Source: Neophaeotheca triangularis
Taxonomy: Eukaryota
Direction: 5' to 3'
Length of the DNA: 64,000 bases
NCBI GenBank assembly: GCA_054600435.1
Contig: BAAIJX010000022.1
Location: forward strand, 124,001-188,000
Shown: positions 15,496 to 41,392 of the stretch, piece by piece
Position numbering within the stretch: the stretch's first letter is position 1
How the letters are laid out: each line of letters starts with the position of its first letter
Notes under the pieces: model-generated
Databases searched by the model: none
Told to the model about the DNA's origin: nothing
What the model saw: the letters and a program-made list of their open reading frames with translations, nothing else
Program-made: the position numbers and the translations under genes

Positions 15496-15945
15496 AAAAA
15501 AAATCCCCCCCAATGTGCCTGACGAGACCAGGGCAAAAGAGAAACTCCCACTTCGCCGGGGACGTCCAGCGCCCCGGGCTTCGGGAGAAGAGAAACCATT
15601 TAACCAGCCCATTTAATTTTTTATCTTTTATGGGCGGCACCTTTCCTTGTGTATTTTTGAAGGAAAGGCTGGTTTTCTGCTTTTTGTAATTTAATTTGTT
15701 AATTCCTTTTTTTTTTAATTGCGCTGGGGTCCGAACCCGGCGCTATTGTTTTATTTTTATTTTATTCGTTTGCGCCGGGTTCGAACCCGCGCACTTCGGT
15801 GGAAGAATCGGTGGGAGGTTTCTCTGGTGGTTTAGTTAGGTTGATTTTTCGGATTGGGATATAGGGAGAAGGGGGGGAGAACGTACCGTTGAGGAATGTC
15901 GTCGAATTCCTTGGAGCGTTTGCGTTTGAGTTGAATATATGGTAT
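15496..15945 (-). ncRNA. Candidate spliced, structured Pol III-type ncRNA gene, copy A (unassigned family)
   Basis: TATA-like 16-mer 15945-15930; A-box-like TTCCTCAACGGTA 15896-15884; intron 15886-15824 (GTACGT..CCTAAC..CAG); B box GGTTCGAACCC about 15788-15777; several GC-rich hairpins; no T4 run on the sense strand until 15538, T8 at 15503-15496. Architecture matches the 41084-41392 locus. Confidence 0.6.
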
Positions 15946-16901
15946 TAAGTCAAAGGGGACCTCGATCCGTAGGTGACGGTGAGGTGAGGTAAGGACGAGG
16001 GTGAGGTGAAGTGAGGTACCTTTGCGCTCTCCCTATGCAGTCGTGACGGCTTTTCTCTTTCACTGTGCAAGGCGCGTTCCCATTGCATGCGAAAAACTCT
16101 CTCGAGACGTCAAGGATAGCCAACCTTCTTGCCCAGCTCTGAAACTGCGTCCACAGGGCTTTTGATGTACCCGTTGTTTTTATTGTAGCCAGCGACATCA
16201 CAGTCTTCACTGCTCAAGGAGACGAATTTGCTTTCGACGACTTCCTGACCACCGGCTGTCAGAGAACCGCTATGTCCAAGCGTAGTAAACATGCCCCTTG
16301 TTTTTAGTCACTCTCCTTCACGGATGCATCGCAAGCGATGGCGATGCTCAGCGAGAGACTGATCCCAAAATGCTATGGCGCCTCCACTAGATGACAAGAG
16401 AATCTGTACCCAGCCAGAACGAACCAGCCTATTGCAAGACCAACATCCCATCTCTCGCAGCAGTTAGAAGCATCCCAGAAACCATTCAAGCTCTTCACCC
16501 AACATTCGCTCTCCACCCAACATTCAAAAGCCATCCAGATCCTTCTCATCCCTCTCCCGCGGCACCTCTTTGTCCATATTCCATCAATCTTCCACATGTT
16601 TCCAGGAAACCCGTCTCAGTACAAAAGCCCAGGCCAGGAGGCGTACGCTCACTCTCACAAACTCTCACAGCATTGTCTTAACCCGACCGTCCCAAGCGCC
16701 GAGCTAAACCTCCAATATTAGCTCCCAGCATCCCCCCCGCCGAGCAGAGAACTCGAAACCCATAACTCCGTTCCCCCCAGGAGCACGCAACCTTCCCTCA
16801 CCTCTGTCCCCCAAAGCTCAGCTTCAAACCCAAACACCAAGACCAAGCCAACACCCAAAACCCCCACATCCACAACAACAACAACAACAGTGACAACCAA
16901 A

Positions 16902-17988
16902 ATGCCCTACCGCCAAATCTGTAAGCCTCATACCCCACCCGCCCCAATCCACCCAACTCCAAAACTAACCCCCCCATTCCCCACCAGACATCCCAGTCCC
17001 CCCAACCCTCCCAACAACCTACGCCCTCGCCTACCTCCAAATAGCCGCCCAGCTGCCCCCAACCCACGCTCTCCGCCAAGACCTCTCAAGCATCGCCCAC
17101 GCCGTGTTGGAAATCCCCGCAGCCGTCGCCACAGCCCTCACGACCACGACAGCACCGCCGGCAACAACGGCTGCAACTCTCACCCCCCACATCAACGCCC
17201 GCCTTCTCCTGTTGCACAACCGGGAGAACTACTACTTCCCGGCGCGTTTGGGGCTGGGCTTTGTTTCCGCGGAACTGAGCCGTGCCGATGCCATGGTGAG
17301 GGCTGCGAGTGCGAGGGGGGAGGAGGATGGGAGGGTTTTGGCGGTTAGGCGCGATTTGTGTCGTTTGAGGGTTGATCGGGTGGCTGTGGGGTTGGCGGAG
17401 ATTAGGGGGGTGGTTGGGAGGTTGGTGCGGGGTGGGGGCGATGGGGGGAATGAAGGTGGTGGTGGCGGTAGTGGAGATGCTGCGGGTGCTGCGGATGAGG
17501 GTGGTGGCGGCCACGGAGGGGGCGATAGTGAGGGCGACGGCAACGGCGACGGCACCAGTGGTGATGGCGACGACGATGCCGAAGTGTATCCAGTTGTCGA
17601 AGACGACGAGGTGCCTCGCAGTCACGACCACAGCGGCGAAATCGAAGGAGCCGACGAAAGGACTAACGACCAGGAACCCGTTGGAAACGGCTCAACGGCA
17701 CGCCTGCGCGAGAGCATTTGCAACTCGGTTGTCGGGACCAAGAGATCCTTCTCCAACATCGAAGGAGAAGACGGAGACGCCTCCACGGCAGCGGGAGTCG
17801 AGGAGACGACGGCCAAGAAGGCGAGGACAGGGCTCGAAAGGTATGAGATGAGCGGTGCCCTGGGAGAAGGTGGGAAGGATGACGGGTACTATGGGGATGA
17901 AAGTTTCGAATACGAGTCAGAGGATGAGTTTGTCGTGGATAGGAATGTGCAAGTGGAGGAACTGGCGTCCTCGGTGCTTCCTGGCTAG
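16902..17988 (+). CDS. Hypothetical protein with Gly/Asp/Glu-rich low-complexity C-terminus
   Basis: ATG 16902 (MPYRQI), intron 16921-16987 (GTAAGC..CTAAC..CAG) joins the 17104-17988 ORF frame. An additional upstream exon near 16596 is possible. Confidence 0.5.
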
Positions 17989-18282
17989 CTGGATGGGCTC
18001 ACGCTTGTCAGGAGATTGCAGTGAGCGGGAAGGCGAGGGAACGAGAAAGACGCCATCGGGGGCTGGGATTGCTGGAGACGGAGCCTGTGGGAAATATGGC
18101 AGCAATAAGAGCAACTTTCTCCCGCTTCCGAAGTTCTAAACCGTTGGCATTGGTCTAATCCACGCACCATTAGCGGCCCGAGACATTGGGTGAGGTGAGA
18201 GCCTTACCTCAGATCCGGCAAATTCACAGCGCTGAGAAAGAAGCAAATAAGGTCGTAAAATCTTGATTGGGTAGCAAAAAAA

Positions 18283-19386
18283 CTACATACCACCCCACTC
18301 GATGCAAAAAGTCCTCGTCCCTTTACTATCATCCACCTTGTCATTTTCCTTCTCCTCTCCCCCAAGCAAGTAACCTTTCTTCACACCCGTACCCAACCTT
18401 CCACCTCCCACCAGTTCGAGCAAATCGAACTCTTCTTCCCATTCCAGCCCTTTGCAGAGGAAATGACTATGGAACCGTAATGGATCGCCCGGGTAGGCCA
18501 TGTACTGACTTCCGAAACGTAGACCAGGTGCAAGAAAGTAGCCGTTTTCGTGCATGTGTTTGTAAAGTGGGTATGAGGACGCTGAGACAGGTGGAAGAGG
18601 CAGACTTTCCGTTTGCTGCGAAAGAGTAAGAGGAGGGTAAGTTGTTGTAGGAGTGTTCGGCCAGGGCTCTAGCTCCGGTTCCACAATGGAAGAGGCAGCG
18701 GTGGTGGAAGTTTCGTCCGATTCCCGGCGTGACCGAGGTGGTCCAGAAGTGCTAGGCGGTCCGAAGAGCGACTCATCTTCACTCGGCTGCCTCGCCAGAT
18801 GTGGCATCGGGGGTGTCGGCATGGCTGAGCCGTTTCCAGAAGCCGCGGCAGTAGGTTCCGCCCGTCGCTTGCTAGGCTTCCTCTTACCCTTGCCAGCACT
18901 CGACGAAGGCTGCAGCATGTCTTCGGGAAGATCATTCCAATCGCCACCTGCGTTGGTAGCTTGCATCTTCTTCGCAAGCCCAGCCTTCCGCCTCTCTTCG
19001 CTCTCCTTCTGAAAGCCCTTTGCGGCAGCCATTCCTTGTCGTCGCAAGCAAGCCTCGTATGCTCTCTTCTCCTCACCGCTCAACCCATTCTGCAAGAAAT
19101 CCTGTTTGTGCGCTTTGGTATCATCAACGATATATGCGATGCCCTTGTCCACCAACAGACGAGCCTCTTCGGGCATGAGCTCAAGCGGGATGCCTTGGAA
19201 CACATTCTGCTGCGGTGCTTGCGGAAGGCCTCCGATGAGAACGCCAATGATGTTGTGGTTTTTTCGGAGGTAAGTGATGGCATTGACGTCGTAGAGAAGA
19301 TAACGATGGGCTAGGGTGAAGATGGCAATTGGCAAGGTGGGCTCTGAGGTGCCATCTGGCCCTGAGGCGTTGGTATTGGCAGCCAT
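18283..19386 (-). CDS. SEN34: tRNA-splicing endonuclease subunit Sen34
   Basis: GVLIGGLPQAPQQNVFQGIPLELMPEEA and GYFLAPGLRFGSQYMAYPGDPLRFHSHF...GRLGTGVKK motifs. Likely start MAANTN at 19386, downstream of a 5'UTR intron 19616-19408. Confidence 0.93.
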   Translation of the reverse strand: MAANTNASGPDGTSEPTLPIAIFTLAHRYLLYDVNAITYLRKNHNIIGVLIGGLPQAPQQNVFQGIPLELMPEEARLLVDKGIAYIVDDTKAHKQDFLQNGLSGEEKRAYEACLRRQGMAAAKGFQKESEERRKAGLAKKMQATNAGGDWNDLPEDMLQPSSSAGKGKRKPSKRRAEPTAAASGNGSAMPTPPMPHLARQPSEDESLFGPPSTSGPPRSRRESDETSTTAASSIVEPELEPWPNTPTTTYPPLTLSQQTESLPLPPVSASSYPLYKHMHENGYFLAPGLRFGSQYMAYPGDPLRFHSHFLCKGLEWEEEFDLLELVGGGRLGTGVKKGYLLGGEEKENDKVDDSKGTRTFCIEWGGM

Positions 19387-19483
19387 ATTAGGCGTGGAGA
19401 CGGAGAACTTTGGTATTGAGTCAGCATCAAGAGCTAGATCAACAGCTGTTCGTCGAGTGCGATGGAGTGTTGTCCAGGTTAAA

Positions 19484-19566
19484 TCATACAAAAAAGACAC
19501 AAATTATTTACTCGTCACGAGCCTGAGGCTTCAGGGGATTGACAGATAATAATGTTTTTTAATCAT
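19484..19566 (-). ncRNA. Intronic box C/D snoRNA (SNORD110/snoR14-like; predicted SSU U in GGAUUGACAG)
   Basis: Inside the SEN34 5'UTR intron: box C ATGATTA, 12-nt guide ATCTGTCAATCC, D' CTGA, C' GTGACGA, D ATGA. The guide is complementary to the conserved SSU sequence GGAUUGACAGAU. Confidence 0.75.
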
Positions 19567-20247
19567 GTGGAAATCGCTAGGAAGAAGAAGGCAGGGGGGG
19601 GGGGGTTTAAACTTACAAGTTTAGTATGTCTTTCGAGCAGTGAAGCTCGTCTCTATCAGTTGTTCACGGCATGTTGTGGTAAGGTGATATTAATGAGGAG
19701 GAAGGAATGCGATAGATGAGGTGTCTCAAGCCAAGACACGTGTTTGTGCGATGCCCCGTGCACTACTACCTAACCTACCTTAACCTAAGCATCTAAAATG
19801 AGGTAGCTTACTAATAGTACTACTACTACCTAGTACTAGTAACCTGGAATAGTTGCTGAGGTGGCCGGGACGGGACATGCTCGGAACGAGTCGTGGTAGG
19901 AGCTTGCTCAGCGTAAAAATTCGAGCTCCTTGGATGCCTTCCATGCCTTCCTCCCTCAACAACCTAGAATATCTTCATCTCGACAGTCTACCTAGGTACG
20001 CTTCACATGGTACATACCACCAGCCCGCCAGTATTGTCGCTACGAGGCTTCTGGATGTGGTTCGACTGCAGCACAGCTTGGGCGCCATGCAAAGGCTCGA
20101 AATGCAAAACATCTCTCTCTCTCTCCACTCACTACTAGACTGCTGAGCAAGGCACATGATTACATGGCAGCCAGGCAGTAGTGAGGCACACAAGGCCCAA
20201 CTAGCCCTTATACTGTACGTTGACCCCCCTTCTCTTGCATCTCTATC

Positions 20248-20318
20248 CTGATGATACCTATCACTACTGTTCCGGAGACTATCAATGATCCACGAACAAA
20301 ACATGCATCACCATCTGA
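20248..20318 (+). ncRNA. snR55: Box C/D snoRNA, snR55/U33-like (SSU Um1269, yeast numbering)
   Basis: CTGATGA...CATGCATCACCAT-CTGA. The guide pairs with SSU UGGUGGUGCAUG (one G-U pair), and the +5 rule lands on U1269. Confidence 0.8.
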
Positions 20319-20488
20319 TCCTTCGCCCTACGACTCACCTTCACACCTCACGGCATGGCCTGTCGCGAACTACAGCTGACAGACCTCAAGAACAGAACAT
20401 CCGGCCATGATAGTGGTTTAGGGTCGAAATCAGCAATATGTTAGTACTGGTGAGCATCCCGAGACCCCCGCCTCCCCCCATCCCCAAC

Positions 20489-20566
20489 ATGATGAGTGTA
20501 TCAATTTTCAGTTCTGCTACTGAAGTACAATGTCGAAACTTCATACCAACTTACCAATTTGTCTGA
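20489..20566 (+). ncRNA. snR61: Box C/D snoRNA, snR61/U38-like (LSU Am1133, yeast numbering)
   Basis: ATGATGA...CAGTTCTGCTA-CTGA (D') ...ATGTCGA (C') ...CTGA (D). The guide is complementary to LSU AGCAGAACUG. Confidence 0.85.
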
Positions 20567-20725
20567 TACACAAACGACGTCAATTCTGCATCACACGATG
20601 GAACCAGGCGGGAGAGCGTAAGCTAACCTGCCAACTCAGACAGATCCAAACGCCAGCTTCAAATAGCTTCCTACACACCAGGGTAAGAAATTCCCCATTC
20701 TAAGCACCCTACCCCCAACATTATC

Positions 20726-20986
20726 ATGATGACACCTAGTCTATCCATTCAACGAACCCCCTCAAAGGTAGCCCATCCCGCCGAGCTAGGCTTCCTTATA
20801 CCGTACCGTCAGCGCTGCCCGAGTCGAGCTTGCTCGGTAAGGAAGGGCGCGCAGATGGGAGGATCGGTTGTGGAGTTGCAGTAATTCGCGTCAATCTGGC
20901 TTCAGAGCGCTCGAACCATGCCTTCCGTTATGGGCGGCGTGGCAAGGGCGCCGGTGGGCGGGCATGAGTTAAAACGGCTTGCCTGA
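20726..20986 (+). ncRNA. Long (261-nt) box C/D snoRNA resembling vertebrate SNORD17
   Basis: Box C ATGATGA, then AGTCTATCCATTCA, D'-like ACGA, an insert of about 210 nt that is GC-rich and base-paired, C' ATGAGTT, and D CTGA. The guide ATCCATTC(A) is complementary to LSU UGAAUGGAU. Confidence 0.7.
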
Positions 20987-22115
20987 TCAAATCAAAAGCT
21001 ACCCTCGCACACATGTCTCAAGAGATGGATCAGTGGGACCTTGCTGACGATTTGGGAAGTTATAGGTAGGTCGACGGCTGCAGTACCTCGGTGCAACAGT
21101 AGTCGCGACAAATTCAGCGTTGCAAACAGTTCTTTCTCCTACGGTGGGTCGGGAGGCATTGACTATCAAGCCTAAGGCGTGGTTTAGGAATGTGTCAGAA
21201 GCACATGGGGATGAGGAAGGATTTCGATAATTGTGAGATGACACGACGGATGTGGCGCCTGCAAGCAATACGTACGATACATGGATGCACATTTAGATGA
21301 AGCGAAATGATTTTGTATCTCTGTATTTCCCGAGGTCCTCTACCAATGTAACAAATGCCATGATGCATACATATTCGGGTGTTTGCTGATCTAATGAAGC
21401 AACTTTGAATCATCTCAAGGTACTACTGTATTGCAAGGCAGTCGGATGTTGGTGCTGCGGCACCTCACATTACTAGTAGTGTAGTGCATGCTCATCCCTT
21501 GGCCGAGCGAGCTGTCAAAGTAGGTAGTAGTAAGGTACATTAGTAGTGACCGACCCATCTGTCGCAAAGCTGAAACAAGTGTTGACGACTCCCAATCCCA
21601 GCTTGCGTTATCGCCGGAAATTCTAGCCTCTCGGACCCTCCTCCAGTAACTTACAGTGTCCCCTTGAACCACACTTGCACACCTCGTACATGCTCACGCG
21701 TAACCACTATTACCCGTCTATTACCTTGAACGTAATCCACTTCTGGCTACCTACCTAGCCACACGCATCCTGCGCTTTTCCCACCCGTCATCTCAATTAC
21801 TCTGGCCATCTCTCGTCCAAGTATCCCGATATCTCCTAGGGCTCCCCGCGCTGGCCGTCAGCCTCTCAACCACCTGGAAAGTTGCAAACGAGTTGCAAAC
21901 CGACAAGTATCCGATTATATTCCCTCCTGCGACCACACTACGCTTGTTCATGAGGCCATAAGAGCCCACAAGTAGACACACAAAGTCACCAGCACTCCGT
22001 CCAACGCTAGTATAAGGGAATCGCATACATAGATAAGGGGTGTACATTTGGCTTCAACGCCCGCCGGGCACCACACATGCTCCCCACATATGTCTCGTCA
22101 GCACAGCAGGAGAAG

Positions 22116-23909
22116 ATGAACCGGCACGGCTACAGCCATGGTGCCAACGGGCATAGACAAGCGAGCTGGGGTTCCGCCAGCGAGTTGGGCATACGGACGG
22201 ACAAATATGAAAAGTAAGCAACACACCCATGCAGTCGAGAGGCCATGCAGGCATTGCGATATGACACAAGTGTGCTGACAGTGTGCTTTCATCCGCACAG
22301 ATACCAACCTCGATCACGGAACGCTCTACTACGGCGAAAGAGCCTCTACCTCAAAATCGGCGGCGCCATAACAATTATACTCTTCATACTAGGCTACATT
22401 TTCCCATCCCTAAGCCCCACGAGCATCCTCTCCGTCCTCTCCCTCGGCCTCTTTAGCGGCGCCTCGAGCGAAGAGTTCAACATAGAAACTGTCCGCTACT
22501 ACGACCTCTCTAATGTAGGCGGTACTAGCCGGGGCTGGGAACGCGATGAGCGCATTCTCCTCTGTGCACCACTGCGCGACGCTGCGCCGCACTTACCCAT
22601 GTTCTTCTCCCACTTGCGAAACCTGACCTATCCCCACAACCTCATCGACCTCGCCTTCCTTGTCGGCGACAGCAAAGACGACACCCTCCCGCTACTCTCC
22701 GACCTCCTTGCCGGGCTACAAGAGAACGAAGACCCGCGTGCAACTTTTGGCGAAATTTCCGTTCTGGAAAAGGACTTTGGTCAAAAAGTGAACCAGGATG
22801 TCGAATCTCGGCACGGTTTCGCAGCCCAAGCTTCGCGAAGGAAAAGTATGGCACAAGCACGCAACTGGCTGCTCTCGGCGGCATTGCGACCAACGCACTC
22901 TTGGGTCTACTGGCGCGACGTCGACGTTGAAACGGCACCCTTCACCATCCTCGAAGACCTGATGCGGCACAACAAAGACGTCATCGTGCCCAATGTCTGG
23001 CGCCCGCTGCCGGACTGGCTAGGCGGCGAGCAGCCTTACGACCTGAACAGTTGGCAGGAATCGGAGACGGCGCTGGCTTTGGCGGACACGCTGGACGAGG
23101 ACGCCGTCATCGTCGAAGGCTACGCCGAGTATGCGACGTGGAGGCCGCATCTGGCGTATTTGCGTGACCCGTACGGCGACCCGGATATGGAAATGGAAAT
23201 TGATGGTGTGGGAGGTGTGAGCATTCTGGCCAAGGCGAAGGTTTTCAGATCTGGAGTGCATTTCCCGGCCTTTAGTTTTGAGAAACATGCTGAGACTGAA
23301 GGGTTTGGCAAGGTAAGAATCCACGCATAAAGAAGCGGAGAGAGGTAGATTTGTGGGGTTATGCTGACCCTTTTCCCGCAGATGGCCAAGCGCATGAAAT
23401 TCTCCGTCGTCGGGCTACCGCACTACACGATTTGGCACTTGTACGAGCCGTCCGTGGACGATATCCGGCACATGGAAGAGATGGAACAGGAGCGGAAGCA
23501 GCGCGAGGCTGAGGAAAACTTGCGACAGGAGCGGTTGGAGAAGATTCAGAATCAGTTTGATGACGGCGCGACGCAGTGGGAGAAGGACAAGGAGGCTGTC
23601 AAGGCCGGTCAGGATGCTGCTGAAAAGGCTGCCAAAGAGAAGGAGGCGATGGAGAAGGCTGAGATGAATGCTGGTAGCGAAGCGTGAGTCCTTCCGTGCA
23701 AGTTCGATGCTTGCGATTTGACGTTTTGGCTGTGTCGGTGAGGTTTTTGCTGACTCTTCTTGCTTTGCAGTAAGAACGGAGGCCCGCTCCAGAACTTGAA
23801 CAACGAGGGCAAGGCGGAAGTCGTCGCCGAAAAAGTTCAACCCATGAAGCGAAACGGGAAAGCAGAAGCGGAGCAAAGGTCGGCAGCTCGCAGTGAAAAT
23901 AAGCCCTGA
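22116..23909 (+). CDS. ANP1: Mannan polymerase II subunit Anp1 (Anp1/Van1/Mnn9 family, GT62)
   Basis: Type II TM segment, LTYPHNLIDLAFLVGDS, ARNWLL, WRDVDVE, VWRPLPDWLGGEQPYDLNSWQES; three introns (about 22214-22300, 23313-23381, 23685-23770). Confidence 0.9.
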
Positions 23910-24526
23910 AGTGAGAAAACGATACTTGGACTGGTCGCTTGGGTTCTCGCGGGCGTTGAAGACATTTTGGCGCTATTTTGCATGGCGAGCACACGCATTT
24001 TCGAATGGGCTTTCCGCCTTCTTTTGCTTCCTCTACTCTTCTGTTGCGCCTGGTTTGGAGCTACTTGGGGCGTGGTGGTGAGGCCTCGTTCATACATATA
24101 GAGCGTGCTGAGCCCGCGGGTTCGACGACGAGTCTGTAGGAATATTGCATATGGTGCCATGTCTTACTATGCTCTTGCGATTAAAATGCCGTTAATGCTG
24201 GTTTATGCTTCGTTATCTGCTTTTGGTGTATGCGCGCCTTCAGGGGTTTAATGTAGGAACAAGTCTTGGCATATGTCGGTGTTAGCGCGCGAAGGCCGAC
24301 GACTCTCAGATGAGATGTGGACTTAATGTATGTTTCAATGTTACTCTACTTGCTGATTGCAAATGCTACTTACTTTTCCTGCCATAACAAATCGCCAGTC
24401 CCGTCAGCGTGTAATATAGGAAGGGATCCATCCGATCGAATCCACTCCCAATGATCTGGATGCTACCTTGACAGCTGTCACATCCAAGGGACAGATCGAC
24501 CTCCAACCCCAACCCAACCCACCATC

Positions 24527-29499: not shown

Positions 29500-30503
29500 T
29501 CGTGATGATAGATTCGTGCTTTTGGAGCTCGGTCACGTTTCGCGGTCTTGCGAGAGCTTGTGTCATGGTTGTTCGGCAGGTTGTTCAACTCGCGCTACGG
29601 AGCCTCGGCTGGCCAGCCAGGTGCCTGTCTCGGCCGCTTTTGGTTTTCGTCTGTTGTTACTAGAGACTCGCTGGGTTTGCTTTTTCCCTTTTTCCTTGTT
29701 TTTTTTTAGAGGGTGGCAGATGATTTTGGGGATCGATCATCTGTGCTGGATCTCAGATCTTCCATCAGGATTTTTGGGGGGGCGCTTGATTGGGGCATAT
29801 AGCATAGCGGTGGCGTTTCCGGGGCTAGGCAATTGCTTGTTCAGACGGTCCTGCGGTTTTGGCTTTGAGGGTTGGAGGCGGTGCTTGTCATCATCGCTAA
29901 GTTACTACTGCTTGCTCGCTAAGTTTTTGTTTTCGTTGTTATCTAGATGTTGTTGCATTGTGTTGTCGTATTGTCGTTTTTGTACTATTGCTGTACAGTA
30001 TCTGTGTAAAAAATGCTTTGCGTCTCAGTGGTTTTTAGGAGGGAGGTCGATCGAAACGACGTCGAAACGGTACGGGTAAGGGTTTGGGCAGGTGAATCAC
30101 CATTTGCCTTTTGTCCGGCCGGCATCCTTGCTTGGACAGTGTTGCGGCTCGCCGACGACAGTAAGAAGCCGTGGCTGACTTGGCCTTCGTAATAAGACGT
30201 AGCTATCGTATCGTTCAATCGTACCAAGATAACCAAATCTATATGGGCTGCGGATCCAAGCGAGCTATATAAGAGCCCCCCAAAAAATTTCATCGTAAAG
30301 GCACATTGGCCCCCGTGCCTTTGTAGTTCTACTCCTCCGAAAGCCTCTGTCTCAATGGCTTTTTTTATTAACCCGGAGGCTGCTATTCCTCACTGCCTCC
30401 CAATCACTCCCAGCTATTGCGGTTTTGTGAAACCTAACGCGCACGCTAATTACCACTCTAGCTACCACCCGTACCGATGCCCCCTTGCACCTCCTTTCCA
30501 TCG

Positions 30504-32426: not shown

Positions 32427-34662
32427 TGCTTCGCCAACCCTAGGGTCGAGATGGTATTTTGCTGTGAGAAATAGAATTCAAGGCGAATAATCGCCTGTCC
32501 ACACGGCATTTGCTGATCGGGCGAGAGCGATGGCACTTCCTCCAAGTAACAACAACAACAACAACGGCAATAACGAGGAGGTCGCGAAGCGTCAAGCGCG
32601 ACGTTCCAAAACCAAGCGATTGTGAAAAGAAGCTGACGAGGCCATCCTGGTCCATGGGCGTGCAGCCGCGGCCTGTCTATTGTCAGTACGCTATCCGGAC
32701 ATCCCCACGGCGAAGTGATCTAAACAAGGACGATAGCTCCGGCGGGCCTGCAGATCCTCTTGGGTAAGCGCCACAAGACGTTTTAAGAGTGGGCAAGGAA
32801 AGTTTTGTGTCACATCGTATGACGGCCATGAAGTCGAATGTGGGTTCTGAGATGTTGGGAAGTCGAGGCTGTCGAATCAACCAAGACTCGAGACGTTGTA
32901 GGATTCCTGGGTGGAGGGTGCTTCCTTTGTTGGTCGTAGCGCCACGGCTCGGCAAGGCAGCCTACATATACCCACAAAAGTACGGAACGATGATCAGCAG
33001 TGGGGATTGGGGAATATGATTGATACATACATCAACTCCTTTTTTGATTCTTCTGTCCTCATGCCACTGAGCTACCTGTCAACGTTTCTCTCTGTAGAAG
33101 CCAGCGCTATCAATTGAGTATTATTGATACGCTGACTCTGACATCGAATTGGATCAACACAGGAGATCAGATTTACCGAACGTTGGCCTAGGAGTCGGGC
33201 AAGACTCCAAACCGGCATTCGACAGCGAGCAAGACTAACGCAAAGCCGACATTAATCATTTGCGGACAAACACAGAACTTGAGTTCGGCAAGCGCGGTCC
33301 CTGTCGACGAGGTCAAAACTCCGGACCAGCGCAGTGGTGTTTGTGGCGCAAACGGTTTTGCCAGGTATGTTAGTTACTGCACGTCCTCCATGGCGGCGGA
33401 TCCAGGATGCGTAGGTATCATTGCGTGTGCTAATAAGGTTGCGAGCCGCATTGCGTCCTCGCGCATCGTGGCTTCCCTGACAGAAATCGGCGCCATGGGT
33501 GGGGCCGCGCTGCCTAGAAAGCAGTTTCAGTATCTCAACTCCACAGCATGTCGCCCATATGAGTATGAGATTAGCCGCGGACTGACGCAGGAACCGACCT
33601 CGACACGTTCGCAACGTCGTTTTGCAAGGCTTAACTGTTCAGTCAAGCTCTCAGCTGTTGGAGTAGGCAACTAGAATCTGCTCAGAAGACGGTCAAGTAA
33701 GGTAAGTCGGTAGTGATTGTAGCTTTTCTCAACCACATATCCGTCGATCACTGCCCAGCGCGGCGCATCTTGATGCTGTCTTTGGAAGGACTGGAACGTC
33801 GGACCAACGGCCAAAGTTTTACCGACGAGTAGGAATGCATCAGATACGGTTCGCTGCAACGGTCACGGAGTCCGGAGAACGAGGCAGCGACGCATCTTCC
33901 TGCCAGGCAGTCCGCGGGCGATAGCACAAGCACTTGCTTAGATCAGACAAGTCATCAAAACAGCCAACCTTTAGTTGCGAGGTACTACTAGAGGCTGATG
34001 TCGGTTTCGGCTGGCCCTAAGACAGGCAATTGTTGGTTGCGAGTAGTACTAGTAGTAGTGAGCCTGGCCGTGAAGGTGTCCAACAACTTGTCCCACGTTG
34101 GCTGCTCCGGAGAATCTACCAAGTACGGAGGATAACGATGAATGAACCTTGGTTGCACAGGCCACACCACTACTGTCTTGCAAGTTGCATAGGAGCCGAA
34201 TCGGCGCCTACGACATGTCCGGCGACGCTACGGACAAAAGGCGAGGTGTAACTGTAGTAGTGGTCTTAGATGCAGGAGTGGATGAGGAGCCGAAGCCTGG
34301 AGTCCGAAGCCTTGCTGCTTCCCGCCCACAGAGGGGCAAAAAGTCACGAAATGGGGCACGCAGTGATTGGGGTCGCTGTGGGAGGCTGGAGCGGATTAAC
34401 AGATGCTCCGAACACCTTCGCCTTCGGGATGCTCTCGTTAACGTTAATATTTGATGAGAAAATTCGAAGTAATAATCATTGCCCGCTGTGCTCTTCTCCA
34501 CTGAAAGTCGTAGTCCGGAAGACATGTAGTGGACGGGAGAATTGAAGCTAATGGGAAGAGCCGCGATCCGATGGCCTGTGCACGCACGCAACCCTGGGCT
34601 TGATGCGAATAGAATGCTTGGCGAAACAACCTCACCTACTCACGTCGATGACTAATAAGGTG

Positions 34663-34700
<38 letters not shown>

Positions 34701-34739
34701 TTTAATCAATCAATCAATCAATCAATCATTCAATCAATC
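34663..34739. repeat. (ATCA)n tetranucleotide microsatellite, imperfect
   Basis: About 18 ATCA units with two interruptions, seen directly. Confidence 0.95.
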
Positions 34740-36793
34740 CCATAATCATCAAGCTTTTTCCACGTCTTAGACTTGTAATAACAATAACCATTATTTCGAC
34801 CATTTCAGGAGGGATTCGGGTTGTTGATGTTTAACAAGAATTACTATTACCCCTCACCTGTCACCACCGACGTTGACGGATGGACATTACGACTCCTCCA
34901 GCACGAGCTGCCTTTCGCGGGCCAATTAGGTGTATCCATAGAAGTTATTACTATTCTCCCTGCTCGCACCGCCGTGTTCGACCGCTTCGTAGAGTGCACG
35001 ATGCACGACTATCTATAGCCATCGTGTTGTGGAGCACCCATCTACAGCCAACTCCGTACATAATCCTCCGATTCCACACCGTCCCAATACTCAGAAGTCA
35101 GCTGGTTTCCACGCTCAATGCAGACGTTCGAGTCGGGCTTACCCATGAACCCCTAAATCTCACGACGCAAGTTATTATTTACTCGTTTCTCATCTGGGCC
35201 CATCTGGGCCATGTACAATGCAACCCGCGAGAGTAGTTTCCAACGCCGGCGATGCTGAGATCACCGTTTACCCCAACCCGCCATCCTCCATGCCAATGCT
35301 CACACTCCCAGGTGAAGAGATCGGATATGCTATCCGATCGAGAAGCACCGCATGCTCGGTACGCTGCCACGCAATCTAAAAAAGTGCCCAGGGCCGAACA
35401 TGCCCGACTCCAATATTCTCCGATGAACCATCGTTCGTGTGGACTGCCCGGCGAACGATTGTATAGGCTAGTTCTCCCCAGTCTATCCCTGTTGCTACAC
35501 GATATTGAACCTCTGGCAGCAACTTGAGAAAGCCCCGAAGCCAACTCCGATCTGTACGATAAGCTGGCTGGTTTGGTCATTTACCAACGCAGTCAAGATG
35601 GTGAGTTCTCGAGCGGAACAAAGGACTCGATAACGGGTAAAGCATGGTCGTTTGAGGCGTTCATCGTGTTCGCTCGATTGCGCGCCATTGAACATCTCAA
35701 TTTTCATCTAGGGGTGCCGTCCTTGTCGCACCGAAAGCCTTTTCACGATCACTGATGCCACGAACCGGGGAGACTACCAAGACGTTTCCGTAAAGCACGT
35801 GGGACACCACTACTCAGCTTCCAGATTTCTCAGCTCCTCCCCAGAACACCAATAGACATTCCGCTCCGCTGGGAGGTCAGTTCCAGCCAGTACACGAGCG
35901 CGGCTTCTAAGCTCTCGGCCAGCAATGCAAGAGCAAGAACATCAATTTACGCGACTCACCATTGCCCTCGAGGTCGAGGCCCGCCGCCAGTAGACGAGCG
36001 ACAGCGATCTCTCCCGCTCCGCGAAGAGCGCAGAATCCTTTCCTCCCCCCAAAAAAAACAATTACCTGTACTCCCTGCTACGGCGCGACCGCGTACGAGC
36101 CGGAAATCGTATCTCCATGTTGGGAGAACGCAAGCCCGGCGATTTTCCCACGGTACCCACAATTTCACCTGCAACCGAATCATCAACGGTGAGATCGACA
36201 GGGCATGAAAGCTCAGATCGTCGACGCTCGGCGTCGCCAGAGACCCCGGTTACCATGTATGGGTGCGTTGCGGGGGAGGGAGCTAAAGCTGGTGGGCACG
36301 AAATACTCACTACAACGCATCGAAGATCGTGGTGACGAACGCAAGATCTGGAAGTTGGGAAGGGCGTTTGGTGGGTAAAGCATGGTTGAGGATACTTAAG
36401 TGAGTACCTATCTAGCTGAAGCCTCGTAGTCAGTTGGAGCAGGAACCATTTAGGCTCACAGCTGAGATCACCTTGCCGACGGGTCGGTAAGGTGCGCCTC
36501 ACTGCTCAGAGCTCTTTTTTCTTCTCTGTTTCTTCTTCCTGGCTATAGTCGTTACTTTGGCTCATGGCAGAAGCTGCCCTGCCGGCAAGCTGGCTAGGTA
36601 TGCTTCGATGCCATTTGTTTTCATTCCCCTCTTGTACTCCGCTCTTCTACCCATCGAACTGCGGTCGCATTGGCTAACGGCAGAGACTGCTCGGCCGGTG
36701 AGCCAGCTAGGTGTGCCTCAATGCCACGAGCACAGTGCTTTTTCAAGTCGTCGATGTAGCTCGCGCCGTGCAAGAGGATTTTCTCGACAGAGC

Positions 36794-38230
36794 TCAGTAC
36801 CAGCGCCCTGGGTCCGCTATGGACGTGCCACCGCTCTCCTTCTCGCACATTTCGTCAAAGGCGTTAACCTTGTCGGTATACTCCTGGACCGAAAGATCCT
36901 TCTTCATATTCTCCACCTCTGTCTCAGCCTTCTCCAACACAACCCTGGCCCGCAAATTCTCCACTTCTTTCTCCGCAATCCTCAGTTTGGTCTCACTGCT
37001 GATGATCCTCGAAGCGTGTTCGCGCGTCTTGCCAAAGAAGTCGAGAGATTCGCTTGGAGTACAGCCAGCGCTTGCAGAAGCTCCATCCTCGTCGTCGCAG
37101 GGGCCCCAGCCATTGGAACTGCGGACCTTGTTCGCACGGGAGCCCCAATCCATGCTCCTGAACTTCACATCGCCCCAGCCGGTCTCGTTGTCGTCGTCAC
37201 TGCCAGCGGGGGCTGAAGGCACGCTTCCCTTAACATTCTCGTCCCGGCCGGGTACGCAGCGGGGAGAGACAGGAGTGGAGCAGCGACGAGACTTTTCCAA
37301 GTGGGCCGGAAGGGCATCCTCAGATTTGCTGGAGTCGAAAGGCTTGATGGAATCTTCACCCCGGTCCAAGTTGGCCTTCACGTTCAGCTTTGCCTCGTCG
37401 TTTAGCTTGGCTCCCTTGCTCCACGCCAACTCCATGCTTTTAATTGCCTCTTGCACGGCATCGAGTACTTTCTTCGCCTCTATCTTGATCGACTCGACCG
37501 CTTCTGCGACCACAACGGGCTTCTCGTCGGCCTTGAGTGCGGAGCTGTTGCTCTGAGCACGCGGTGGCGGGGTCCCGAACAGCTCTATGGTCTCGTGGAT
37601 GGAGAGGTTCGACTTTGTCTCTTGAGCCTTCGACGCACCGGTGGCGATTGTGTTTCCAGCCGCATTGCTTGAGTCGGGAAGATCGCTACCGCTGTGGAGA
37701 GAGGTAGAGGCAGGAAAGTCAGATGGAGCCATGCTCCCGAGAGGCGAGTGCTGGTAAGCCTGAGACTTGCCACAAATGGGATCGTCGTAAGGCTCGCCGA
37801 GCAGACCCGTGTGAGCTTGCTTGCTTGCGCCTTTTTTGGCTTTGTTCTCGGAACCGTAGATGGTGCTCTTGATGCGGCGGGCATAGTCCTCGACCACGTC
37901 AGCCCGATGTTGCCTCCTATCGACCAAGTCCTTGACGATGTCGTAGTCGAGCTGGCGCTTCTGAACCGCCAAGATGCCCACTGCCGCTTCAACTTCAGCC
38001 AGGATGTTTGTGACAGCCGAGTCGACCAGATGGCACCACGTTCTCTCGTATTGGCTTTGAATCGTGTCATCGCCTGCACTCTCAACCAATTCGCCAACTT
38101 CGTACAATTGTGATTGAAGCTCGCCGTCGACGGTACGTTCGGCCAGGCTGTTGAACAGACATATCAGGTTGCTACCCATAGTAAAGGGCATCTTGCCTGC
38201 GAACTTCTTGTCAGTGAAGCGCGGTGTCAT
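36794..38230 (-). CDS. Hypothetical protein with coiled-coil segments; exon structure uncertain
   Basis: 478-codon ORF with protein-like composition and no recognised domain. Confidence 0.5.
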   Translation of the reverse strand: MTPRFTDKKFAGKMPFTMGSNLICLFNSLAERTVDGELQSQLYEVGELVESAGDDTIQSQYERTWCHLVDSAVTNILAEVEAAVGILAVQKRQLDYDIVKDLVDRRQHRADVVEDYARRIKSTIYGSENKAKKGASKQAHTGLLGEPYDDPICGKSQAYQHSPLGSMAPSDFPASTSLHSGSDLPDSSNAAGNTIATGASKAQETKSNLSIHETIELFGTPPPRAQSNSSALKADEKPVVVAEAVESIKIEAKKVLDAVQEAIKSMELAWSKGAKLNDEAKLNVKANLDRGEDSIKPFDSSKSEDALPAHLEKSRRCSTPVSPRCVPGRDENVKGSVPSAPAGSDDDNETGWGDVKFRSMDWGSRANKVRSSNGWGPCDDEDGASASAGCTPSESLDFFGKTREHASRIISSETKLRIAEKEVENLRARVVLEKAETEVENMKKDLSVQEYTDKVNAFDEMCEKESGGTSIADPGRWY

Positions 38231-38661
38231 GCTTTTTTAGAGGACTCACCGGATACTTTGGTGGAGTTGGTATTGATCCGGTCTCACAAGCCCAGCTCTC
38301 TTGTTAAGGGACTGTGAAGCGGGGTCGTGACCTAGAGATGGTAGTCGATTGTGAGGTAGTGGTTTGCAGCCCAGAAGTGGTAGTCAGATACCGTGAGGGG
38401 ACAAGGGGTGTTGCGACCTAGAAGTGGTAGCCAAATACCAAGAAGAGGTGGTCTTGCAGGTTTTAAGTAGTAGAAAGTGCAAGAGAAGAGAAGCTCGAGA
38501 CAAGCAAGTATACTCAACTCCAGGCCACGTGAGATCTCGATGCGCGCACAGACCTTTTTCTCGTGACTGTCTACATTTTAAGTCAAGTGAGGTGTTCTCA
38601 TTCACGTACTCACCAAAAGCGGCAAGCTGCATACGGCAGAACCCTCGCTCACTCAACACCT

Positions 38662-39864
38662 CTACTCATGGTGACCTTTCCCCTTGCCACCCTTGCCATG
38701 CCCATTTCCCTTTCCTCCACCCCAGCCGCCCCTCCACGGCTCACCGGGCTCACCCGAAGGGCCCCTCATAGTCTGGTTGGCGGGCGGCGCTTCACCAAAG
38801 TCAGGTGTGCCTTCCGCATCGAACCTGACGGGCAAAGCGTTGGACCAGCGGATGCTGCCGCAGTTACCCTCAGGGTCGGGAGTCGAGTGGTAAGCGCTCC
38901 AGACTTCGGTGCCGTCGGGGGACATGAAGAAGCTGTATGGAATAGTTAATGAGACGCAGTTCTGGGGGTTTGAGAAGGAATGGGAGGGGGAAAACGGACC
39001 TGTTGTGCCCAGTTCCGAAGTTGCCGTTGGCGGAGCTGAAGACAGGGCCGGTCTTGGTCCAGCTGTTGCGGTCTAGCGGGTCGCCGCAGCCGTCGTACTC
39101 CAGCAGGCCGAGCGAGTAGTCGGGGGTCCAGCAGAAGCTGGCGGCAAAGCTCAACCAGGTGCGCCCAGTGGGTGCGTGGTACAGAGCGGCAGCGCCTTCG
39201 TTGACTGGCGTCTCGGAAAGCTCCCATTCTTGGGTGGGCTCGGACAGGAGGTAAGGTTCGCCGATTACGGCTGGCGAGAGCAGCTCGGCAATGATGAGGG
39301 ACTGGTTGGTCTCGCCGGTGCCGCCGCCGAAGCCTGAATAGACCAAGTAGCGCTTGTTGTTGGCGTATAGGACAGTGGCGTCAATTGCCCAATCGTCGCC
39401 GATCTGGCCGAGGTAGCTGTAATCGTCCCAGGGGGAGTCGCCACCTAGTCGTGTCTGTTAGCTTACGATACATGCTTCAACAGGTTGTGGTTTGAGAAGC
39501 GCGACCTACCCTCAATGACGTGAGAGCGCTGTGTGTCAAGATCAAGGCCTTCGGTACCAGCGGTGTAGTAGATGTGCCATCTGTTGTCGACAAAGTGCAT
39601 CTCTGGGGCCCAGACATCGCAGCACCGGCTGGGGTTGGTATCAGACCAGACTTCCTTCGTAGTGCCGTTCTTGAGGCCATTGAGGGTCGTGGCACGGGTC
39701 ATTTGGATCTGATCCCAGGTGGTTGAGATGAAGTAGTAGTAGCCATCGTGGTAGACGATATTAGGGTCTCCGCCATCGTACGTACGGAGAGGGTTCGAGT
39801 AGGGTGCAGCGGTGGTGAAAGGGAGGAGGGAGGCCAAGAGGGGGGCCACGGAAAGGAAACGCAT
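38662..39864 (-). CDS. Secreted glycoside hydrolase family 43 (arabinofuranosidase/arabinanase-like), 3 exons
   Basis: Signal peptide MRFLSVAPLL..., GGDPNIVYHDGYYY, CCDVWAPEMH, WAIDATV, VNEGAAAL, FGTGHN; two introns (about 39445-39508 and 38935-38998). Confidence 0.9.
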
Positions 39865-41083
39865 TGTGGATAGAGATTTGCGGTAGCTACCTTGTTCTTG
39901 TCGCAATCTCAGTTGGTTCTGCAGAGGCGATACCTACATACTTATGTCTTCAGCGTCAGCCCCAGAGGCCGGGCGTCCGAATGTCAGCCAAGTGTTGAGA
40001 ATGCAGCTTGTTTTCCTGGCGACGGAGCATGACCCTCTTGCGAGCGGGCAATGGCAAGGCCGAGCATGTCGTTATTGCGAACGGCGTGGAGTCGACATGA
40101 GGTCGGTCAAAGTCTCAACATGAGCCGCCGTCTCTGCCAATGGCAACGAGCTCCGCCCGGCTGCTTCGGGGTTGTTGTGGAGAGCGCGCGGGGATGGTCC
40201 AACGTCAACGTGCATTGGAAATCTGGGCATTGCGACTTGGTCGGTTGGAAGAACGAAGAGACCGTACATCCCATACTTTTCCAAGTATTGATTCTGCTTG
40301 CGTCTTGCCCTGCATCTCATGATCTCACATACTCTGCGACGAATCGAAACGAGTCTCATTGACGCATCGGTAGTGACCTCGGGGCTGCGCGACACCTTCA
40401 GATAGCCATGTCATGTAACGACACTAGCGATCAAACGATACCGTAAACTCCTTCGAGACCCAGCAGTGATATTCACCCATGAATTCTCCCTTGACGACAA
40501 AGCTGTGAATCCAGAAACAATTCCACAGTGTGGCCCTAACACCCTTTGCCGCCTTCTCTTCCTGTCCGAGGATCTCGCAAACCTGATCAGCGATCTTGCC
40601 CCGTGCCTTGCCGTGCCAGCGGAGCAGAGTCGCATCTTCTGAGGCTTAGACGAAAGTACTGGCGTTTTTGAGGTCTTGACATGGGCTTTCATCTATCTGT
40701 TCGATGAGAGAAGCAAAGACGTTCAAGGCTACCGAATCTCGTTCGCTCCGGCTTGCAATACGAAGTGTCAGGGGTATGTTGATAGTGAGTCTCGAACTAC
40801 TCAACTTCTGCTTGTTGAGCCATAATCGATGTTGGGTCTCGCGTAGCATCCGATGCTGCGTCAAGTCAAGGGAGGAGTGTCGGTATCTGAACGCACTTGC
40901 GATCCTTATGTTGTTGATTATGTTTGCAGATTCTGACCGTGAAACCCTCTCAGGCTAGATGCGCGGTCATGGTACAAACTCAGTGCGCATCTGGTGCGTG
41001 GGGGCACAGGTGAGGTGAGGTGAGGTGAAGTGAAGTTGGGGGTGGAAGATCTCCACATCGTCTGCCTTACGGCCACAGGGGGC

Positions 41084-41392
41084 ATACCATATATTCAACC
41101 TCCCGCCAACCTTCCCAGATCCCGCCAACGAGGCGCAATCGGTACGTTTGCCTAATAACTTCCCAATTCGAACCCACGCTAACCTAGTCTTCAGATATCC
41201 GTAGCCAACTGGTCGCCGGTTCGATCCCCCCTCGTCCCCTTCCTCAGTTACGACGTTAAATTAGCGACTGAGGCGTCGTGCAGTTCACCGACGTATAAGC
41301 ACAACTGCCTTGTAGGCCAAAGATAAACCACTCCTTCACTCGGATGAGTTTGCTTTCCCTCCAGTGCTTAAGTTACTGGAGGCTTTCTTTTT
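41084..41392 (+). ncRNA. Candidate spliced, structured Pol III-type ncRNA gene, copy B (unassigned family)
   Basis: 16-mer ATACCATATATTCAAC 41084-41099; A box AGGCGCAATCGGTA 41131-41144; intron 41142-41194 (GTACGT..GCTAAC..CAG); B box GGTTCGATCCC 41218-41228; three hairpins; first T-run of 4 or more is T5 at 41388-41392. Confidence 0.6.

Follow-up and report, generated by a model that had tools for sequence, protein, structure and literature searches.

Several described systems come close to the two loci analysed here. The fission-yeast-type U6 gene, short and non-coding, combines a TATA upstream with an internal tRNA-type B block, a short intron of spliceosomal type and an oligo-T end. In the available excerpt of PMC5855946, the S. 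pombe gene is described with a TATA, an A block and an mRNA-type intron that contains the B block, and spliceosomal introns are reported in fungal U6 and ascomycete rDNA. In fission-yeast tDNAs, a TATA centred at -30 recruits TFIIIB (PMC2040200, excerpt). In Neurospora, where the Pol III inhibitor ML-60218 has been used, some Pol III transcripts are lineage-specific and have TATA-like elements and clusters of T (PMC3547838, excerpt): the Pol III-dependent milRNA genes milR-1 to milR-4 are short intergenic units with hairpins, putative A/B boxes in some and a T cluster directly downstream. TFIIIC also occupies sites without Pol III (ETC or COC sites), where the B-box consensus is found outside tRNA genes, between Pol II genes (PMC3395662, excerpt). 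Finally, the non-coding snoRNA hosts of filamentous fungi are spliced, ORF-poor Pol II units.

The window analysed is a 64,000 nt stretch of Neophaeotheca triangularis DNA, and all locus coordinates are window positions. Two unannotated loci were studied: locus A on the minus strand (about 15496-16017) and locus B on the plus strand (about 41008-41392). Both resemble the fission-yeast-type U6 gene in their TATA, internal B block, oligo-T end and putative short intron, within a short and probably non-coding unit. Unlike U6, they are without U6 sequence or structure (Rfam empty to E<=10), their B box is 3' of the intron rather than inside it, an A block is undemonstrable, their RNAs would be 2-3 times the length of U6, and the two copies share no body. 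Like the Neurospora milRNA genes, they are lineage-specific, intergenic short units of a filamentous fungus with TATA-like elements, hairpins and 3' T runs; however, the milRNA genes are without reported intron (the term is absent from the available text of PMC3547838), and of the two loci A alone offers a hairpin of sufficient length to pass for a small-RNA precursor. A B-box-type consensus is all that defines ETC sites, whereas the B box of A and B is one of seven ordered blocks, among them a TATA, splice signals and a tail with T runs. The snoRNA host found in the window shares GTACGT, CTAAC and CAG with both loci, but the introns of A and B (63 and 53 nt) are too short for a snoRNA, and no C/D or H/ACA family was matched.

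Shared blocks and spacing

Loci A and B carry, in common order, a 16-mer, CGGTACGTT, an intron-like stretch, an exact tRNA-type B box and a U-rich tail, and within the 64-kb window the shared blocks were confined to these two loci. The gaps between blocks (A/B) were 41/40, 20/12, 8/6, 36/23 and 232/155 nt: the gap from the 16-mer to CGGTACGTT differed by 1 nt and the remaining gaps by 2 to 77 nt. Similarity of the inter-block spacers was at shuffle level (z -0.9 to +1.8) and the spacers were unalignable; the same ordered elements with little overall identity, as first described, were recovered. A profile of the segment from the 16-mer to the B box, searched against the window, returned A (E 2e-39) and B (E 1e-29), with the next best matches at E 2.4 and 2.7. 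These results support A and B as a real, non-chance pair, and support a conservation limited to short ordered blocks, as expected for the expression signals of a non-coding gene family. A spacing that is kept while other spacers vary fits a geometry imposed by proteins.

Tracts of the pentamer (GGTGA)n lie upstream, on the plus strand in both cases: at 15975-16016 (repeat family D1) in A and at 41009-41036, upstream of the 16-mer, in B. The exact 15-mer GGTGAGGTGAAGTGA is found in both (plus strand, 16000-16014 and 41019-41033). The reported presence of the tract was upheld, but the A tract is inverted relative to all other A elements.

The 16-mer ATACCATATATTCAAC, which contains the TATA-like TATATT, is identical in A (15930-15945, minus strand) and B (41084-41099, plus strand), as reported. 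These were the only window matches at <=2 mismatches, and two matches were obtained in 0/100 shuffles. When regions of 2.1 and 2.3 kb were drawn at random from the window and paired (277 pairs), no pair had an exact word longer than 15 nt in common. The 16-mer is followed by a spacer or short first exon of 43 nt in A (15887-15929, minus strand), ending with CG, the first two bases of CGGTACGTT, and of 42 nt in B (41100-41141, plus strand), where TCCCGCCAAC occurs twice (repeat family D4). The spacer sequences were marginally alike (z 1.84) and their length was kept within 1 nt. The distances of 43 and 42 nt given earlier from the 16-mer to G/GTACGT, the 5' splice site, were correct, with CGGTACGTT in common. 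GGTACGTT occurs four times in the window, twice at these loci.

Splice signals

Putative spliceosomal introns were delimited from sequence signals only: 63 nt in A (15824-15886, minus strand) and 53 nt in B (41142-41194, plus strand), each with a 5' GTACGT and a CAG acceptor. Between these lie TCCCAATCCGAA (15848-15859) and CTAAC (15835-15839) in A, and TCCCAATTCGAA (41161-41172) and CTAAC (41179-41183) in B. The shared motif TCCCAATYCGAA was found in the window solely at 15848-15859 (minus strand) and 41161-41172 (plus strand), and the distance from CTAAC to the intron end is 11 nt (CAG included) in both loci. Lengths and signals match the earlier account. The same window contains a non-coding, multi-intron snoRNA host gene (the snR61 host), and the GTACGT/CTAAC/CAG geometry of both putative introns is that of a bona fide intron of this host. 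The evidence supports the splice signals at A and B as canonical. An intron is the usual mark of a Pol II transcript; to our knowledge, spliceosomal splicing of Pol III transcripts is documented essentially for U6 only, which is itself located in the spliceosome.

Internal promoter elements

Using the B-box consensus GGTTCGANNCC (PMC12193147, excerpt), exact matches were found in the window solely at 15777-15787 in A (minus strand; GGTTCGAACCC, a palindrome that scores on both strands) and at 41218-41228 in B (plus strand; GGTTCGATCCC). By simple arithmetic, chance alone would give about 0.5 exact matches over both strands (128 kb). From the acceptor, the distance to the start of the B box is 36 nt (A) and 23 nt (B), in agreement with the range first given.

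An A box had also been proposed as part of the promoter. At the proposed site, neither locus has a match to TGGCNNAGTGG at <=2 mismatches, and such matches are common in the window, at background frequency (233 observed vs 207 expected). Counted from the sequence, the A-box-like site is about 87 bp (B) or about 111 bp (A) from the B box, at or above the 30-90 bp that is normal in tRNA genes (PMC5855946, excerpt).

3' ends and RNA folding

Locus A has a long hairpin (15727-15788, minus strand) in which the B-box palindrome pairs with another copy of itself, GGTTCGGACCC (15727-15737), around an A-rich loop of 28 nt; its 17-nt arms are 94% complementary and it recurs in computed folds. The A tail GTGGGAGTTTCTCTTTTGC (15533-15551, minus strand) contains the first T4 (15535-15538), and positions 15536-15551 are predicted to form a terminal stem with 15811-15825, at the start of exon 2. 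This duplex (-21.1 kcal/mol) was equalled in 1/500 shuffles. The region that it encloses holds five A(A/T)TAAA hexamers, through which a Pol II transcript might not read. A T8 run (15496-15503, minus strand) is the strongest candidate Pol III terminator. In B, a 9-bp hairpin (41358-41382) and the tail CTTTCTTTTTGC together occupy 41358-41402 (plus strand), with the first T5 at 41388-41392 and then a T4 at 41399-41402.

The tail sequence is GAGTTTCTCTTTTGC in A, 232 nt past the B box, and GAGGCTTTCTTTTTGC in B, 155 nt past it. The GAG(GC)TTTC..TTTTGC tail with oligo-T that had been described as shared is present in both loci, but not as an ungapped match, two indels being needed to align it. 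At both loci, the first T>=4 run past the 16-mer is in the conserved tail, 3' of a helix; that no T4 run comes earlier is without significance, as the same occurs in shuffles with P 0.75 (A) and 0.44 (B).

Exon 2 of A folded with z -8.08 (0/100 shuffles as stable), whereas exon 2 of B was not above shuffle level (z -0.93, 39/200 shuffles as stable), and the predicted helices are at different places. The three position-matched hairpins of the preliminary description were not recovered.

Coding potential

The spans had been reported free of ATG-led ORFs, which was incorrect: ATG 15612 opens 98 codons in A (15316-15612, minus strand) and ATG 41344 opens 71 codons in B (41344-41559, plus strand), each the first such ORF of its locus and extending beyond the span. 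In the putative spliced transcripts, the first ATG is 270 (A) and 207 nt (B) past the start of the 16-mer and each opens its long ORF; the ATG-free leaders are explained by dinucleotide content (P 0.44 and 0.21). Codon scores were 0.03 (A) and -0.04 (B), which places them at or under the 5th-percentile value for coding chunks (0.004; coding mean 0.23), and all six frames are open at both stretches (runs of 60-104 and 39-160 codons). Neither ORF matched a Pfam family, and BLASTP of the A peptide against the B peptide found no similarity at E<=100. No homologues of the tested ORFs turned up in 5.8 billion clusters or 1.84 billion representatives, and 0/9 tested ORFs were in a protein collection in which the neighbouring Vps15-like protein is present. 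Both ORFs are probably non-coding.

Known families and further copies

The scan against Rfam that had been proposed earlier matched no family at either locus, at gathering score and at E<=10, C/D and H/ACA included. ARAGORN found no tRNA genes in the window at default, and only implausible cloverleaves at 80% and 60% thresholds, and no known RNA family fits; the earlier account had likewise seen no hallmarks of U6, tRNA, 5S, SRP or RNase P/MRP. Neither the profile search of the window nor the collections scanned yielded a further copy. The proposed multi-copy, SINE-like family gained no support: the 64-kb window has two copies, a cloverleaf is missing and the copies do not show uniform decay. 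The RIP indices TpA/ApT and (CpA+TpG)/(ApC+GpT) gave no clear signature at either locus, and no target-site duplication was seen on inspection of the flanks.

Discussion

Whatever the polymerase, A and B probably form a real two-member family of transcription units that are non-coding and bear an intron. Of the preliminary description, the core observation of a pair was retained, together with the B box and the canonical splice signals; the A box, the matched hairpins and shared structure, the multi-copy or SINE-like nature and the absence of ORFs were not.

The explanation that we tentatively prefer makes A and B short, non-coding paralogues that have a Pol III promoter of TATA + B box and an intron of the mRNA type, laid out as in fission-yeast U6. 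The TATATT in the 16-mer, considered with the TFIIIB-recruiting TATA of fission-yeast tDNAs, speaks for Pol III, as do an exact B box without any tRNA gene in the window, a first T>=4 run placed in the conserved tail after a helix, and the pairing of the A tail with exon 2 around the five hexamers. The confinement of the ordered blocks to A and B, the near-constant gap after the 16-mer, the intron geometry in common with the snR61 host, the U6 and Neurospora precedents and the missing coding evidence also count for this explanation. Against it count the undemonstrable A box with its long distance to the B box, the insignificant lack of earlier T4 runs, a B exon 2 no more structured than shuffles, the likeness of the upstream repeat tract to a Pol II upstream element, the near-restriction of Pol III splicing to U6, and a copy number of just two.

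A near-equal reading, also quite possible, is that A and B are Pol II spliced lncRNA or snoRNA-host-like units containing a TFIIIC-type element. The 16-mer would then be a TATA/initiator core promoter and the GGTGA tract, which is found in both orientations, an orientation-independent upstream element, followed by a first exon of roughly 24-45 nt and an ordinary intron. This agrees with the canonical intron signals kept in both loci, with the spliced non-coding Pol II unit (the multi-intron snoRNA host) in the same window and with the undemonstrable A box. The 12-mer and the B-box-like 11-mer would bind protein or RNA; the latter might act as a TFIIIC site of the ETC type, without Pol III recruitment, as at the yeast TFIIIC-only sites with B-box consensus in Pol II intergenic regions (PMC3395662, excerpt). 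However, an exact B box conserved in both exon 2 regions finds no explanation in ordinary Pol II terms, the retained spacing of 42/43 nt from the TATA block to the next block is left unexplained, the five hexamers of locus A that resemble poly(A) signals lie in the stretch from the intron to the exon 2-pairing tail, and a TATA acting at -30 would leave a very short first exon. The Pol II exon rival already named in the preliminary description is weakened in its protein-coding form only. In that form, which we consider unlikely, the loci are the 5' UTR and first intron of two mRNAs for small orphan proteins (ORFs from 15612 and 41344), the 98-codon ORF possibly running on past its stop codon, which a GTAAGT overlaps. 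In both putative spliced transcripts, the first ATG does open a long ORF and, by eye, the tail blocks are gap-free in the reading frame of both ORFs, with S-F at the same place; yet the two peptides share no similarity and have neither family nor homologues, the ORFs are missing from a collection that contains the neighbouring gene's product, composition accounts for the ATG-free leaders, six frames are open and codon scores are low. Coding paralogues should moreover retain the coding part, not just promoter and intron.

Two further readings are less probable still. Unspliced Pol III genes, in which the GTACGT, CTAAC and CAG blocks have another use (e.g. as internal promoter or protein-binding sites), would suit the overlap of CGGTACGTT with the expected A-box place, where B reads AGGCGCAATCGG (by eye, 7/9 specified A-box positions with one extra base allowed), but three correctly spaced splice signals in both loci, with CTAAC 11 nt from the acceptor as in a real window intron, speak against them. 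The least probable is that A and B are what decay has left of tRNA genes or a tRNA-derived SINE and are functionless today, their likeness being the remnant of a once-repeated element. Dispersed copies in opposite orientation, tRNA-type B boxes and, in A, T-arm-like hairpins followed by A-rich stretches are compatible with this, whereas neutral decay should leave even, alignable similarity and not exact 16-, 11- and 9-mers amid shuffle-level spacers; the searches for a cloverleaf, target-site duplications, further copies and RIP were likewise unfavourable.

If A and B are spliced Pol III genes, they would be two old paralogues that retained their expression signals while their bodies diverged past alignment. 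The promoter would be of the hybrid type-2 kind, as in fission yeast, with TFIIIC on the exact B box in exon 2 and TFIIIB on the TATA-containing 16-mer, at the observed 42/43-nt spacing to the next block. Pol III would start about 25-30 bp past the TATA and stop at the first T run after the helix (T4/T8 in A, T5 in B). Primary transcripts of about 275 nt (B) and about 415 nt (A) would lose the 53/63-nt mRNA-type intron, and the spliced products would be structured RNAs of about 220 and 350 nt. Since the bodies of A and B are without shared structure, the 5' module may be a common expression cassette for different cargo RNAs.

Two loci with the same ordered blocks

Locus A (minus strand, about 15496-16017) and locus B (plus strand, about 41008-41392) carry a 16-mer, a short putative exon 1, a putative intron, a putative exon 2 with a B box and a tail, in the same order, and are probably two paralogous, unannotated, non-coding, intron-bearing units. 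The 16-mer ATACCATATATTCAAC, described beforehand as identical in the two loci, was recovered at 15930-15945 (minus strand) and 41084-41099 (plus strand), and nowhere else in the window at up to 2 mismatches. Two copies of it were present in 0 of 100 shuffles, and no word longer than 15 nt was shared in any of 277 random pairs of window regions. It was the sole match recovered between the loci by MAFFT and Smith-Waterman. The distances from the 16-mer to the putative 5' splice site G/GTACGT (43 nt in A, 42 nt in B) were as previously reported, and CGGTACGTT is common to both loci. The spacers between blocks resemble each other at shuffle level (z -0.9 to +1.8). When the window was searched with a profile of the 16-mer-to-B-box segment, only A (E 2e-39) and B (E 1e-29) were returned, the next best match having an E-value of 2.4. 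From these unique ordered blocks, the shuffle-level spacers and the profile result, the pair is real, far beyond chance. Its pattern suggests selection on short signals rather than a decaying repeat.

Metagenome scans with two patterns (16-mer + N35-50 + GTACGT; 12-mer...CTAAC...GGTTCGA) and a scan of viral contigs each gave 0 matches in collections that are not fungal. The lone match among bacterial and archaeal genomes (an Oscillospiraceae MAG) was rejected, as about one is expected by chance and all the other blocks are absent from it. Since none of the metagenome, viral, bacterial and archaeal collections is fungal, absence there says little. A string search for the block sequences gave unrelated matches only, within the portions of the literature that it covered.

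Genomic setting and upstream repeat tract

The window, with a GC content of 54%, resembles DNA of a filamentous ascomycete. A Vps15-like kinase gene (10292-14956, plus strand; Pfam VPS15 helical, Pkinase and WD40) reaches its stop codon on one side of locus A, and a plus-strand ORF starts near 16969 on the other. Locus B has a GH43 gene (38662-39933, minus strand) on one side and, on the other, a uridine-kinase/UPRTase gene (42141-43948, minus strand) whose 3' end faces it. From the positions and strands of these neighbours, both putative units head toward the 3' end of a convergent gene, with room of at most about 1 kb. A Sen2/Sen34-like gene, whose ORF encodes the catalytic domain of a tRNA-intron endonuclease (PF01974, E 8e-15), was located at 18286-19503 (minus strand), and its position 2.3 kb from locus A is probably a coincidence. 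No clear RIP signature was found at the loci. The sole stretch of the window containing 300-nt windows below 42% GC is 34500-34900, where TpA/ApT is low (about 0.4) and not RIP-like.

The pentamer (GGTGA) tract upstream of the 16-mer was found at both loci, as the preliminary description had it, but not in one orientation relative to the other blocks. An exact 15-mer, GGTGAGGTGAAGTGA, lies at 16000-16014 and 41019-41033, on the plus strand at both loci, so the tract is inverted with respect to all the other blocks in A and its action, whatever its nature, would be orientation-independent. GGTGAGGTGA occurs just once more in the window, at 18189-18198, again on the plus strand.

Putative introns and exon 1

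Fungal introns typically follow the consensus GTRNGT, with a CTRAY branch point about 10-15 nt before YAG and a length of about 50-70 nt. Putative introns with GTACGT, CTAAC and CAG had been proposed for both loci and were located at 15886-15824 (A, 63 nt) and 41142-41194 (B, 53 nt); in site sequences and length, both would qualify as fungal spliceosomal introns. The distance from CTAAC to the putative intron end is 11 nt in both (CAG counted). This splice-signal geometry agrees with that of the intron hosting snR61 (20484-20569), the sole Rfam match in the window, which sits in an intron running from GTTAGT to GCTAAC...CAG. The surrounding region (20200-20900, plus strand) resembles a non-coding host gene for snoRNAs that has three or more introns, each with a C/D-box-like snoRNA; more TGATGA...CTGA units are found at about 20250-20320 and starting near 20747. 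At the beginning of its first intron, GTACGTT precedes a C-rich run, as in locus A.

Within the window, TCCCAATYCGAA is restricted to the two putative introns, and this block is accounted for by none of the readings weighed below. In locus B, the intronic block with TCCCAATTCGAA (41159-41178) is a 20-nt direct repeat, at 70% identity, of the exon-1 segment 41111-41130, 48 nt upstream. TCCCGCCAAC occurs twice in exon 1 of B (41101 and 41120); the matching part of exon 1 of A is AATTCGA.

B box, A box and terminator

The B boxes GGTTCGAACCC (A, 15777-15787) and GGTTCGATCCC (B, 41218-41228) were found 36 and 23 nt past the acceptor, in agreement with the preliminary description. Nothing else in the window is an exact match to GGTTCGANNCC, a published B-box consensus (PMC12193147). 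TATATT is contained in the 16-mer at both loci. No A box (TGGCNNAGTGG, up to 2 mismatches) was found at the CGGTACGTT block of either locus, and the only match of that stringency in the appropriate interval, at 41202-41212, ends just 6 nt before the B box. Such matches are at background level across the window (233 versus 207 expected).

The first runs of at least four T in A are T4 at 15535-15538 and then T8 at 15496-15503, and the first in B is T5 at 41388-41392; shuffles, too, are often free of earlier T runs (P 0.75 for A, 0.44 for B). The tails, claimed to be shared, proved only roughly alike (GAGTTTCTCTTTTGC versus GAGGCTTTCTTTTTGC), and they stand at different distances past the B box (232 versus 155 nt).

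RNA structure and known RNA families

The hairpins had been regarded as position-matched; the predicted helices lie at different places in A and B. Exon 2 of A is extraordinarily structured (folding z -8.08). Base-pairing joins its two B-box palindromes (17-nt arms, 94% complementary) and also links its first bases to the tail at -21.1 kcal/mol, a value reached by 1 of 500 shuffles. A 15-nt inverted repeat (15811-15825, 15536-15551) encloses about 290 bp of A-rich DNA and is read here as an RNA terminal stem, though it could instead mark the two ends of a small inverted-repeat element. The latter, as a MITE, was rejected, as no target-site duplication was visible by eye and B has no counterpart of the repeat. 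Folding of exon 2 of B is ordinary (z -0.93; 39 of 200 shuffles as good), with no terminal stem like that of A.

The reported lack of U6, SRP, RNase P/MRP and 5S hallmarks was borne out, with no Rfam match at the loci at gathering score. The U6 covariance model gave no match there at gathering score or at E up to 10. SRP RNA, RNase P/MRP RNA, 5S rRNA, U3 and other curated families gave only chance-level scores (E 1.7-9.3), far below gathering. Inspection of the loci by eye for snoRNA, SRP, RNase P and telomerase-template motifs yielded nothing convincing. With ARAGORN, default settings yielded no tRNA, and relaxing the thresholds brought up only implausible cloverleaves, consistent with the earlier statement on cloverleaves; a tRNA or pseudo-tRNA identity was rejected.

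Coding potential

The loci had been described as lacking ATG-led ORFs, but one starts inside each, at 15612 in A (98 codons) and at 41344 in B (71 codons). The two peptides are unrelated to each other and neither matches a Pfam family. Homologue searches with the 98-codon ORF, with the open frame downstream of A and with a 167-codon stop-free frame after B (41319-41819, plus strand), which has a coding-like codon score of 0.15 and an ATG only near its end, came up empty; a complete HMMER search of 1.84 billion representatives gave none either. None of the 9 ATG-to-stop ORFs (either strand) was present in a protein collection that contains the Vps15-like protein of this genome. Codon scores of 0.03 (A ORF) and -0.04 (B ORF) compare with a mean of 0.23 for coding sequence, where the 5th percentile is 0.004. 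Around both ORFs, all six frames are open. An ATG-free leader followed by a long first ORF was considered as a sign of an mRNA and discarded: it was significant against mononucleotide shuffles, but this was gone against dinucleotide-preserving shuffles (P 0.44, 0.21) and with the openness of all six frames. The loci are probably not protein-coding, with spliced gene models of another shape still conceivable.

Which polymerase

Transcription by Pol III from a TATA element and a B box, combined with removal of an mRNA-type intron, is the leading candidate for the mechanism, at somewhat less than even odds. An exact B box is kept in both loci, and a TATA lies inside the 16-mer; in fission-yeast tDNAs, a TATA centred at -30 recruits TFIIIB (PMC2040200). 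The spacing from the TATA to the next block has changed by at most 1 nt, against 2 to 77 nt for the other spacers. In both loci the first run of at least four T stands behind a helix in the conserved tail, and in A the stretch spanned by the significant terminal stem contains five A(A/T)TAAA hexamers. The S. pombe U6 gene, in which a TATA and an A block are accompanied by an mRNA-type intron with a B block inside it, provides a natural precedent for joining Pol III and intron signals, and spliceosomal introns are described in fungal U6 genes and ascomycete rDNA (PMC5855946). Lineage-specific Pol III transcripts that have TATA-like elements and T clusters are described in Neurospora (PMC3547838). 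Against this mechanism, there is no demonstrable A box, the lack of earlier T runs is not significant, and the A-box-like site would stand about 87 bp (B) and 111 bp (A) away from the B box, at the limit of the 30-90 bp described as normal or beyond it (PMC5855946).

It is nearly as likely that A and B are spliced Pol II lncRNA units carrying a TFIIIC-type element. GTACGT, CTAAC and CAG are conserved with the geometry of the snR61-host intron, and a repeat tract is present upstream. A B box need not imply Pol III, since ETC sites bind TFIIIC only (PMC3395662). Small-ORF mRNAs starting at 15612 and 41344 are unlikely, and Pol III genes that keep the intron-like segment unspliced are slightly more so. 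Functionless tRNA or SINE relics are about as unlikely; a tRNA gene or tRNA-derived SINE was rejected on the lack of a cloverleaf at ARAGORN default, the presence of only two copies in the window and the shuffle-level spacers.

Implications

It is possible, though less likely than not, that A and B represent a lineage-specific Pol III gene family of a filamentous ascomycete, driven by TATA and B box, with transcripts requiring the spliceosome. They would be the first non-U6 Pol III RNAs with an mRNA-type intron, and the 5' module (16-mer, intron, B box) would be a common cassette for unrelated structured cargo RNAs. The introns of U6 are usually explained by reverse splicing at the catalytic centre. 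If Pol III transcription with splicing is true, that explanation would be inapplicable to A and B, spliced Pol III transcripts would be no peculiarity of U6, and fungi would gain a new class of Pol III RNAs and a compact natural promoter cassette. If Pol II is responsible, the loci would still be a rarity, namely spliced non-coding units in which an exact TFIIIC-type B box has been conserved, with a bearing on the interplay of TFIIIC sites and Pol II transcription. Under either polymerase, A and B would be unannotated functional DNA.
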